This document shows, piece by piece, positions 33,001 through 36,000 of a stretch of 64,000 nucleotides of DNA (positions are counted from its first letter, which is position 1; every line of letters begins with the position of its first letter). The stretch is from Acidobacteriota bacterium (GTDB lineage: Bacteria > Acidobacteriota > Vicinamibacteria > Vicinamibacterales > CAVVIG01), in the NCBI GenBank assembly GCA_023265105.1, contig JAHFUJ010000001.1, forward strand, positions 15,243 through 79,242, read 5' to 3'. Made by a program: the position numbers.

Positions 33001-36000
33001 GGTGGCCACGCGCAACGACGATCACGGTGGCGATCCCTTGAAGCGCCTGCAGGCGTTCGTCAACACCTTTGCCGCCCAGTGCCGCCGCTCGGGGCTCAAC
33101 GCCGAGCTCATCGTCGTCGAATGGAACCCTCCCGCCGATCGGCAGAGGGTCGGCGAGCTGCTGCGCCTGCCGCCTGATGCGCCATTGGCCGTGCATGTCG
33201 TCGAAGTGCCGCCTGAGATCCATCGGACATTCCGGCACGCGGCCGTCTTGCCCCTGTTCCAAATGATGGCGAAGAACGTGGGGATACGACGCGCGCGGGG
33301 TCGATTCGTTCTGGCCACCAACATCGACATCATCTTTTCCAGCGCGCTCGTGGAACATCTGGCGTCCGAACAGCTCGAGCCCGGCCACATGTACCGGGTG
33401 GATCGTCACGACATCCAGGCGGATTTCCCGATCGACGGCCCGCTCGAGCAGCAGATGGCGTTTTGTCAAACGCATCAGATCCGCGTACACGCACGCACCG
33501 GGACGCATCCTGTCGATCCGTTCGGCCGGCTGAGGACGCTCGAACCTGATATTGTCGGATTGGCGGGCTTTACGCTCGGCGACGGCTGGCACACGCGCGA
33601 AGGGGATAGCACATACGGGTTTTACCGATGGGCGACTGAGCAAGCGCGGTTCACGGTCGACCGAACCGCCTGGCCGAATCTGGTGCGGGGCGTGGTGCTC
33701 GACGTGGAGGTGGAACCGAACCCGTACCAGCCTGACTCCTGGACCGAGCTGGAGATCTTCGACGGCGAGCGGCGACTGGCGCACAGGCGCGTGTCGCGGC
33801 GCACTCGCCTGCGCGTCGCACTCGATGACGGCGTGGCGCGTCACGAGATCGTCATGCGAATGCTCGATTCGAGCGGCGGCCGCCTGGGGTTGCCGCTGTT
33901 TGAGAGCCGCGGGCAGTTGTGCTATCGCGTCTGGCACGTAGGCGTCGGCACGGTCCCCAGCCACGAGTACGACATGGCATTGTGGCGGCGGGCGCCGAAC
34001 GCCAGTCCGCAATTGATCGTGGAGCACACGCCGTCCGGCGTCGAGATCATGACCGATGCCGAGAAATATTCGTGCTGCGCGCAATACGGGTCGTTCGAAT
34101 CGCCGGCCGACGGCATCTACGAATTCCTTCTCGAGTACGCGCCCGTCGAAGGTCGCCTCTCTTTCAGTGTGATGGACGAAAAGCGCGGCCGCTGGCTTCC
34201 GTCGACTGTCGTCGAAATTGACCGCGACAAGATCCAGCTCCTGAGCCTCTCGGTTGAGATTCCGCACGGAACGACATTCTCGCTCTTCATCTCGAACAAT
34301 CTGCCAGACGGTGGCGTGTCCCGCTTTGTTCTTCGTCGACTCCTCGGGTCGGTGTCGCTGGAGGAGCTGCGTCAGAAGCAAGGGGCCTCGACGTTCGCGC
34401 GAGTCGTACGCCGGTTGGGCGACGTGGCTGTGAGGTTCACCGCTCCGTTCCGATGGGTGAGATCGGCGGCCTCGTCGATTGACCAGCAGCGCGAGTTGGA
34501 AGGCCGCGTCGCGGCGCTGGCGCCGCTGGCCGAGCTGGCCCCTTTTGCCCAATTGCTGAGAGAGTACAGGCCCGCTGAGCTTCATCAGAACGCCAGCGGC
34601 GATTTCCAGCTGATGGCGCGCGAGCACTGGCTCGCGCTCAGAGGCTATCCCGAGCTCGAGATGTTCTCGATGAGCCTCGACGGACTGCTCGAGGCGCTCG
34701 CTCACTCCGCCGGGATCCGCGAGCAGGTCTTCGAGATGCCCCTCTGTATCTATCATCTCGAGCACGAGAAGGGATCGGGCTGGACCCCGGAAGGCGAGGC
34801 GCAGCTCAGGAAGCGGATCGCCGAAAGCGGCATCACGTGGCTGGACGCGAGCACGGTGCACATCTTGGCGACCTATATGCAGTGGCTCCAACGCCCCATG
34901 ATCTTCAACGGATCAGATTGGGGTCTGGGCGACGTGACCCTGCCGGAAACGACACTCCAGCCGGTCACCGACAACGTGTGATGCGCGCCGTCACCGGCGA
35001 AATACCAGACGTTTCGACTCCGTACCTGAGCGTCGTCGTGACGTCGCGCAACGACGCTCACGGGGGCGACCCGCTCGCGCGTCTCCAGGCCTTTGTGAAC
35101 ACGTTCGACGCGCAGTGCCGTCGTTTCGAGCTCGATGCGGAGTTGGTGGTCGTCGAGTATAACCCTCCGCCCGAGCGGCCGCGGCTGCATGAGTTGATTC
35201 GGAGGCCGCCGAATTGCTCGTTCCCGCTTCGGTTCATCGAGGTGCCGCCGGCGCTGCACGGTCGCCTGCCGCGCGCGCACGTGCTTCCCCTCTTTCAGAT
35301 GGTCGGTAAGAACGCAGGGATCCGTCGCGCGCGGGGCCGGTTCGTGCTCTCGACCAATATCGACATCATCTTCTCGAACGAGCTCGTGGAGTTCTTCGCC
35401 GCCCGCACGCTGCGGCCTGGCGTCTTGTACCGCGTTGATCGGCACGATATCGAGTCGGACTATCCGATCGAGGCGACGCTCGAAGAGCAGTTGTGCCATT
35501 GCCGCAGTCATCAGCTGCGCGTTCATCGGTCGTCCGGCACCTATCCGGTCGATCGTCATGGACGGATGGTGCCGCTTCGCCCGGACGTCTTCGATCCTCC
35601 ATCCGTCACCATCGGTGACGGGTGGCATATCCGCGAGGGGGACCAGGTCCTCGGGATTTACCGCTGGGCGACTGAGCACGCGAGTCTGGTCGTCAATCTC
35701 ACGAGCGCTGAGCCCGCCGTCGGCGCGGTGCTCGCGCTCGATATCGAACCGAATCCTTACGATGCTACCTCGTGGGTTGAACTCGAGATCGCCGATGGCG
35801 CTTGTGTCCTCGCGCGCGCACGCATCTCGGACCGACGCCTTTTGTGGGTGCCTCTCGCGAGCGCTTCCGGTACGCACGAGGTCGTTCTGAGGACCGTTGC
35901 CGCGTCACCCTCCGAACGGTCGCTGCCGGCCTTCGAACGCCGGGCCGGACTGTCCTATCGCCTGCGGTCGGCCCGTCTGACCGAGTGGCCGGCGCCACTC

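Follow-up and report, generated by a model that had tools for sequence, protein, structure and literature searches.

The 64,000-nucleotide stretch analyzed here (the window; positions 15,243 to 79,242 of the forward strand of contig JAHFUJ010000001.1, GenBank assembly GCA_023265105.1, from an Acidobacteriota bacterium) is a large glycan-assembly locus with a GC content of 63%, in which nearly all genes with high third-position GC lie on the plus strand. Four proteins of this locus, two glycosyltransferases (A and B) and two methyltransferases (C and D), share a small module, which is the subject of this analysis (Table 1). A sequence-only reading of the same DNA had proposed this recurrence from eight quoted peptide strings, all of which were found in the named open reading frames (ORFs) and near the positions given. 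The quoted spans were correctly located, but their limits were slightly short; for A and B, strands one and two, which contain the SYC / WAYA motif, begin ~65-80 nucleotides further upstream. The module limits in Table 1 were taken from profile alignments and two AlphaFold models.

Annotation of the four proteins from existing families was sparse. Proteins A and B were without any Pfam match, even at E ≤ 1, and the glycosyltransferase family to which they belong is matched in neither Pfam nor NCBIfam. Both libraries likewise lack a model covering the C-terminal regions of C and D, and the module was rightly described as not assignable to a named family. Members of the protein C cluster bear the name SAM-dependent methyltransferase. 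For protein D, the longest ORF begins at 4890, and the start at 5037 matches a database protein exactly. The start codon of B (ATG, 34981) and the stop codon of A (TGA, 34979-34981) share one base, a sign that translation of the two genes may be coupled.

Table 1. Coordinates of the module-bearing proteins, their modules and the export genes in the window (aa, amino acids; SAM, S-adenosylmethionine; HMM, hidden Markov model; pLDDT, predicted local distance difference test score).
Feature	Position	Strand	Description
Protein A	32966..34981	+	671-aa glycosyltransferase, catalytic domain split (aa ~1-180 and ~535-669) by ~350-aa insertion
First inserted module of A	33578..33946	+	aa 205-327; mod1AB HMM; separate unannotated family
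Module in A (A/B type)	34025..34354	+	aa 354-463; AlphaFold2 pLDDT 95.8, all-beta; hhalign against C/D-type family
Protein B	34981..37050	+	689-aa paralogue of A
First inserted module of B	35614..35979	+	same family as A 33578-33946; mod1AB HMM E 3.3e-56
Module in B (A/B type)	36070..36396	+	modAB HMM E 1.3e-52
Protein C	24966..26168	+	400-aa class I SAM methyltransferase, Pfam Methyltransf_25/11 at aa 79-179, C-terminal module
Module in C (C/D type)	25824..26165	+	aa 287-400; AlphaFold2 pLDDT 94.9, 8 strands; family HMM E 4.5e-29; A/B-module HMM E 8e-5
Protein D	5037..6341	+	434-aa CmcI-like methyltransferase, weak Pfam Methyltransf_24 (E 0.0037), C-terminal module
Module in D (C/D type)	6012..6338	+	last 109 residues; enriched-family HMM E 1.5e-35; hhalign with C Prob 95.8%
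Wzm	10228-11031	+	Pfam ABC2_membrane
Wzt	10964-12877	+	Pfam ABC_tran; C-terminal Wzt_C (PF14524) at aa 496-626, ~12449-12841, E 1.3e-11

By sequence comparison, the four segments, which occur in two glycosyltransferases and two methyltransferases of one locus, are homologous. Within each type the relationship was detected between single sequences, with blastp E values of 6.9e-25 for A and B over the module region and 5.5e-6 for C and D; when C and D were compared as small family profiles, hhalign gave a Prob of 95.8% and an E value of 6.8e-9. Between the A/B type and the C/D type, identity in the locus is under 25% and single-sequence comparison of A or B with C or D gave nothing significant (blastp E ≥ 0.27; no phmmer match). 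This result alone would fit a chance resemblance, in which no real common module exists and the beta-strand-like alternating composition of proteins from a GC-rich genome produces the similarity. However, profile-profile alignment (hhalign) of the A/B modules with the enriched C/D-type family extended over 103 collinear columns with a Prob of 97% and an E value of 1.2e-10. The A/B-module profile (102 sequences) aligned with the C+D profile (19 sequences) over 100 collinear columns with a score of 27.6, whereas 100 controls with shuffled columns scored 11.6 ± 2.4 (maximum 18.7) and the profile in reverse scored 9.4. Because the column-shuffled and reversed controls score far lower, composition was rejected as the cause of the match.

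Reciprocal cross-matches between the two types occurred at the right positions. Among six-frame ORFs of the window, the A/B-module HMM matched protein C at residues ~290-395 (E 8e-5); it also matched dozens of C/D-type representatives at positions identical to the C/D-profile matches. The C/D-derived HMM in turn matched the tandem A/B-type modules of P0052 and P0053, two long relatives of A, with E values of 1e-21 to 1e-23, and some neighboring methyltransferases in the related loci L009 and L025 were matched by both module HMMs. When the C/D-type HMM was run on the window itself, A and B were the top non-self ORFs, with full-length collinear alignments that were not significant alone (E 0.37-2; B 0.37). 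No further module copies were found in the window with either HMM. On the basis of the profile-profile alignment and the reciprocal HMM matches, together with a strand order that is identical in two independent models, we consider chance resemblance exceedingly improbable. For both types the result is a significant profile match over the full ~105 columns with the same strand order. The claim of one module common to four proteins, which the sequence-only reading had made dependent on profile-level similarity beyond low-complexity composition, thus stands on both counts. The shared C-terminal motif also keeps its register, the pairing of LMIVRNASPSAGRSQVVVHSL with LVIHTWDTPTSARVRIDEL being recovered in a 49-sequence alignment. 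MAFFT in local mode shifted the last two strands between C and D; global and 49-sequence alignments gave the correct register.

The module is predicted to be an unannotated domain of ~105-115 residues with an eight- to nine-stranded jelly-roll beta-sandwich fold of the lectin or carbohydrate-binding-module (CBM) kind. AlphaFold2 models of the A and C modules, each built from 49 sequences, were all-beta and of high confidence (predicted template-modeling scores of 0.89 and 0.87, respectively) and showed a discrete jelly roll, in line with the beta-sandwich that had been predicted by eye. When the strands were mapped on the hhalign alignment, eight had one-to-one equivalents and A added one N-terminal strand. 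In a Foldseek search against the PDB, nearly all of the nearest folds to the A model were CBM6, CBM29, CBM35, CBM4 and CBM22 domains (E 4.5e-4 to 1e-2, template-modeling (TM) score 0.5-0.6), the top CBM structures being CBM6-3 (1o8s), CBM29-2 (1w90) and CBM4-2 (2y6k) with E values of 4.5e-4 to 3e-3. The matches of the C model reached TM scores of up to 0.6, with E values from 3.8e-4, and comprised GlfT2, a porphyran-binding CBM, CBM4, Cry-toxin domains and BC2L-C, a TNF-like lectin. TNF-alpha was a poor match to the A model (TM 0.27). These scores would place the modeled module in a jelly-roll or lectin-like fold class and in no specific family.

Proteins A and B carry the module within a split transferase. 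The A/B transferase family is large (>2000 relatives), and contiguous relatives of ~350 residues align to residues 1-180 and 535-669 of A; this contiguous form is present in Clostridium sp. OS1-26, Metabacillus herbersteinensis, Opitutaceae, Nitrospira, Planctomycetota and others (for example, loci L031, L045 and L047). In order, the ~350-residue insertion holds a first module (residues 205-327), the shared jelly-roll module (residues 354-463) and a poorly conserved linker, in A numbering. Within this family, the jelly-roll module is present in 0, 1, 2 or 3 copies and the first inserted module in 1 or 2. Three tandem A/B-type modules occupy the insertion of the A relatives P0052, P0053, P0055, P0057, P0060 and P0063 (1064-1098 residues). 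In P0254 a contiguous transferase domain is followed by C-terminal modules, three according to the A/B-module HMM and a locus scan (L001) and two according to the shallower C/D HMM. The first inserted module (~125-140 residues, with the motif GDGWH.REG..YRWA...VEPNPY) is found once or as a tandem pair in relatives from Bryobacterales. Its candidacy as a homolog of the jelly-roll module was rejected (hhalign Prob 5.7%).

Beyond these transferases, an exhaustive HMMER search with the C+D module profile over 1.84 billion representatives identified 648 proteins at E ≤ 1e-3, 157 of them at E ≤ 1e-10. Word-indexed homolog searches with the C and D modules gave only close and mostly truncated relatives, and the family was revealed by the exhaustive profile search. 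Among the best 144 of the 648 representatives, proteins of 52-1385 residues carry 1-4 copies at either end or internally, and some consist of little more than 2-4 modules; in multi-copy proteins, two copies outnumber three. The Pfam partner domains are GT2, GT1/GT4, PMT_2, Methyltransf_11/25/21/23, FkbM, Methyltransf_24, GDSL esterase/acyltransferase-like, radical SAM and DUF4214, and one protein (P0171) has the order module, methyltransferase, module, FkbM methyltransferase. A signal peptide is lacking in most members. One two-module protein of 312 residues (P0150) has a lipoprotein-like N-terminus (…LTGCGG…), and judging from this N-terminus some members may act outside the cytoplasm. The distribution is that of a mobile cassette of polysaccharide-building and polysaccharide-decorating enzymes, which in this locus is inserted in a loop of two paralogous glycosyltransferases and forms the C-terminus of two unrelated methyltransferases. 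The earlier picture of a unit grafted onto glycosyltransferase and methyltransferase domains therefore holds for its mobility and its many catalytic partners; in A and B, however, the module is not appended but sits inside an insertion.

The position of the module in A and B bears on the idea that it is a passive structural element, such as a spacer, a membrane-apposition domain or a folding aid that would place the catalytic domain relative to the membrane without a specific ligand. Insertion in a surface loop of the transferase, beside another, unrelated beta module and a linker of low conservation, is consistent with such a role, and the conserved exposed arginines of an R-x-R motif in strand 3 of the C/D type could face anionic lipids. 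This motif is, however, not common to the A/B type. A spacer is also unlikely to remain recognizable as a family over 648 or more clusters, with members in numerous classes of enzyme, in tandem and in proteins made of modules alone. We consider a passive role improbable.

Links to named families were found mainly for the A/B type. Pfam C1q (PF00386) was the only family that recurred on isolated A/B-type modules, in 8 of 49 segments at E ≤ 1 with a best E value of 1.5e-4, and its summed match exceeded the gathering score (23.7 bits) in the three-tandem-module relatives P0057 and P0063 (31-33 bits). Against PDB sequences, the sole match of the A/B-type profile was a single-chain adiponectin trimer, matched three times with 6.3 bits each (E 1e-3), in an alignment that shares the motifs G.F..P..G.Y.F and L.L..G..hxL.V with A/B-type modules. 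Proteins A-D and the isolated module segment of A gave no C1q match at E ≤ 1, and the C/D-type segments gave neither C1q nor any other recurrent Pfam family. A remote link to C1q/TNF jelly rolls is possible from these sequence comparisons; membership in C1q was rejected, as the window modules remain below the gathering score. Membership in an existing CBM sequence family was also rejected. CBM Pfam families were absent from the matches of 98 module segments of both types, and the sole match of the C/D-type profile among all PDB sequences, to CBM29, was not significant (E 0.23). Weak matches to the lectin-like GLEYA and PA14 families were given by P0055, a three-copy relative of A.

The C1q signal raises the possibility of an assembly or oligomerization module, in which C1q/TNF-like or TarS-like trimers, or hetero-oligomers, would join glycosyltransferases and methyltransferases in a membrane-associated complex, with glycan binding secondary or absent. 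Besides C1q as the only recurrent match, its gathering score passed in P0057 and P0063 and the weak adiponectin match, TNF-like trimeric lectins are among the fold matches of the C model, and GlfT2, another such match, is a tetramer (PMC7168186). The CBM-like domains of TarS make up a trimer interface (PMC5156392). That four enzymes of a single pathway carry the module is consistent with a docking device used in common, and proteins of 2-4 modules only could serve as scaffolds. However, the C1q signal is sub-threshold in single modules and absent from the window copies and from the C/D type. C1q/TNF structures are poor fold matches, as illustrated by TNF-alpha, and monomeric CBMs rank first, while the excess of two copies over three in multi-copy proteins disfavors pseudo-trimers. 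We regard oligomerization, or another protein-protein role, as the main rival reading, possible but somewhat doubtful as the primary role. More speculative, and in our view rather unlikely, is a cytoplasmic docking unit that would act instead of or besides binding sugar, the copies on enzymes and on module-only proteins associating as C1q/TNF-like oligomers. If this were true, the enzymes of the locus would form a membrane assembly line, a cohesin/scaffoldin-like principle for polysaccharide biosynthesis, in which module copy number and type set which enzymes enter the complex and in what ratio.

The surroundings of the four genes point to polysaccharide assembly with export by an ABC transporter. 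In addition to Wzm and Wzt, GT2 enzymes occur several times in the window and methyltransferase domains at least seven times; UDP-sugar dehydrogenases, epimerases and an aminotransferase are encoded as well. At positions 37105-40335, a 936-residue carbamoyltransferase with N and C domains is fused to a class I methyltransferase, and a 136-residue SxtJ-like ORF comes next. Two asparagine-synthase-like glutamine amidotransferases (19819-21753 and 40580-42580) may amidate uronic acids. Between ~9000 and 24000, third-position GC is ~0.70 compared with ~0.80 elsewhere in the window. In this block are Wzm, Wzt with its Wzt_C domain, a GT2 enzyme and three methyltransferases of small size, along with two large ORFs (15271-16824 and 17608-19782) that gave no Pfam match; the block may have been separately acquired.

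Related loci were gathered with a full-length transferase alignment, and those recovered were rich in Acidobacteriota. The nearest genome-derived locus (L002, an Acidobacteriota metagenome-assembled genome, 62% identity) retains the A/B pair and a C-like protein. In the Acidobacteriota loci L008, L009, L025 and L080, methyltransferases with an N-terminal module adjoin the split transferase. Module proteins also occur in a Wzm/Wzt locus (L083) and beside MBOAT and GDSL genes (L084).

Because of the fold class, the modular and tandem distribution and the exclusive partnering with glycan-acting enzymes, we suggest a non-catalytic glycan-targeting module, a role that fold class and domain partners make about as probable as all other accounts combined. 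Binding of the nascent polymer or of a common scaffold had also been proposed in the sequence-only reading. The ligand would be the lipid-linked polysaccharide during its growth, or some feature of that chain, and binding would take place on the cytoplasmic face of the membrane. Conserved W/Y, R-x-R, N and S positions of the module are candidates for a surface site. A shared acceptor would then retain each tailoring or elongating enzyme through its module, raising acceptor affinity and processivity. Action of the module would precede that of the carbohydrate-binding domain of Wzt in this locus, and the module may help to order modification and chain capping before that domain takes the finished chain for export.

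Several points weigh against glycan targeting. TM scores of 0.5-0.6 indicate a common general fold and not a common function, and the strong divergence of the four copies (<25% identity between types) is a poor fit with an epitope common to all of them. Oligomerization is an equally natural role in view of the weak C1q/TNF sequence signal and of TarS. Most members are without a signal peptide, and classical CBMs are not usually cytoplasmic. Glycan targeting and oligomerization are mutually compatible.

Among known systems, CBMs of families 6, 29, 35, 4 and 22 are like the predicted module in their jelly-roll fold, their size of ~110-140 residues and their use as non-catalytic, modular and often tandem units on carbohydrate-active enzymes. 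Classical CBMs differ in being secreted and attached to glycoside hydrolases, whereas the copies described here are on cytoplasmic biosynthetic enzymes and show no significant sequence kinship. C1q (PF00386) is a ten-stranded trimeric jelly roll, whereas the module models have 8-9 strands; single modules score ~6 bits against adiponectin, and C1q/TNF chains are weak fold matches.

The closest parallel within the locus is Wzt_C, which is likewise a cytoplasmic beta-sandwich in an ABC-transporter-dependent glycan pathway. In model systems, the Wzt carbohydrate-binding domain recognizes the polymer by reading the chain terminus (PMC11231755). Given Wzt_C, cytoplasmic glycan-reading modules do exist in such loci. 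Wzt_C differs in being carried by the transporter ATPase and not by tailoring enzymes, and it was outside the top 50 fold matches. Kinship with the module was rejected, as no Pfam Wzt_C match was found in A-D or in 73 module proteins and hhalign of the Wzt_C of the locus against both module profiles gave a Prob of <1%. The comparison with Wzt_C drawn in the sequence-only reading therefore applies to logic and not to sequence.

Staphylococcus aureus TarS offers the nearest functional precedent among cytoplasmic glycosyltransferases, being a GT-A (GT2) wall-teichoic-acid enzyme that acts on a polymer and carries tandem non-catalytic beta modules. Its tandem CBM-like domains make the enzyme more processive, increase its affinity for the acceptor and form the oligomer (trimer) interface (PMC5156392). 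The TarS modules differ in that they resemble CBM48/CBM68, are C-terminal and are specific to the TarS family, whereas the module described here belongs to a different family, lies inside the transferase domain in A and B and is common to methyltransferases too. GlfT2 (PDB 9dtp, 4fiy) was the top fold match of the C model, with an E value of 3.8e-4 and a TM score of 0.59 over a ~120-residue part of GlfT2, at 13-17% identity and with no sequence-level link. It is alike in functional class, as a polymerizing GT-A galactofuranosyltransferase of a lipid-linked glycan. GlfT2 contains a beta-sandwich domain at its N-terminus.

For methyltransferases, the comparison is with the chain terminator ORF6 of Klebsiella pneumoniae O7, a methyltransferase-kinase with a predicted CBM-like domain of immunoglobulin-like fold; according to a 2024 study, no other chain terminator was known with a CBM (PMC11231755). 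Compared by description only, ORF6 is alike in containing a methyltransferase, in belonging to an ABC-transporter-dependent O-antigen pathway and in its predicted CBM-like beta domain. Outside a few enterobacterial models, how enzymes of ABC-transporter-dependent pathways find the chain, how tailoring enzymes are ordered and how capping is coordinated with export are largely unknown. The family would give a large, sequence-defined set of such modules on transferases, methyltransferases, acyl-modifying enzymes and radical-SAM enzymes, and its profile could annotate hundreds of protein clusters without Pfam or NCBIfam cover in the module region, many of them labeled hypothetical. The occurrence of 0, 1, 2 or 3 copies in one transferase family provides natural experiments, and with the family, its profile and these experiments taken together the role of the module becomes open to direct test. 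While accessory beta-sandwich modules on carbohydrate-active enzymes were known already, new here are a sequence-defined family outside Pfam and NCBIfam, the breadth of its partners, its insertion within a transferase fold and its fourfold use in one cytoplasmic pathway.

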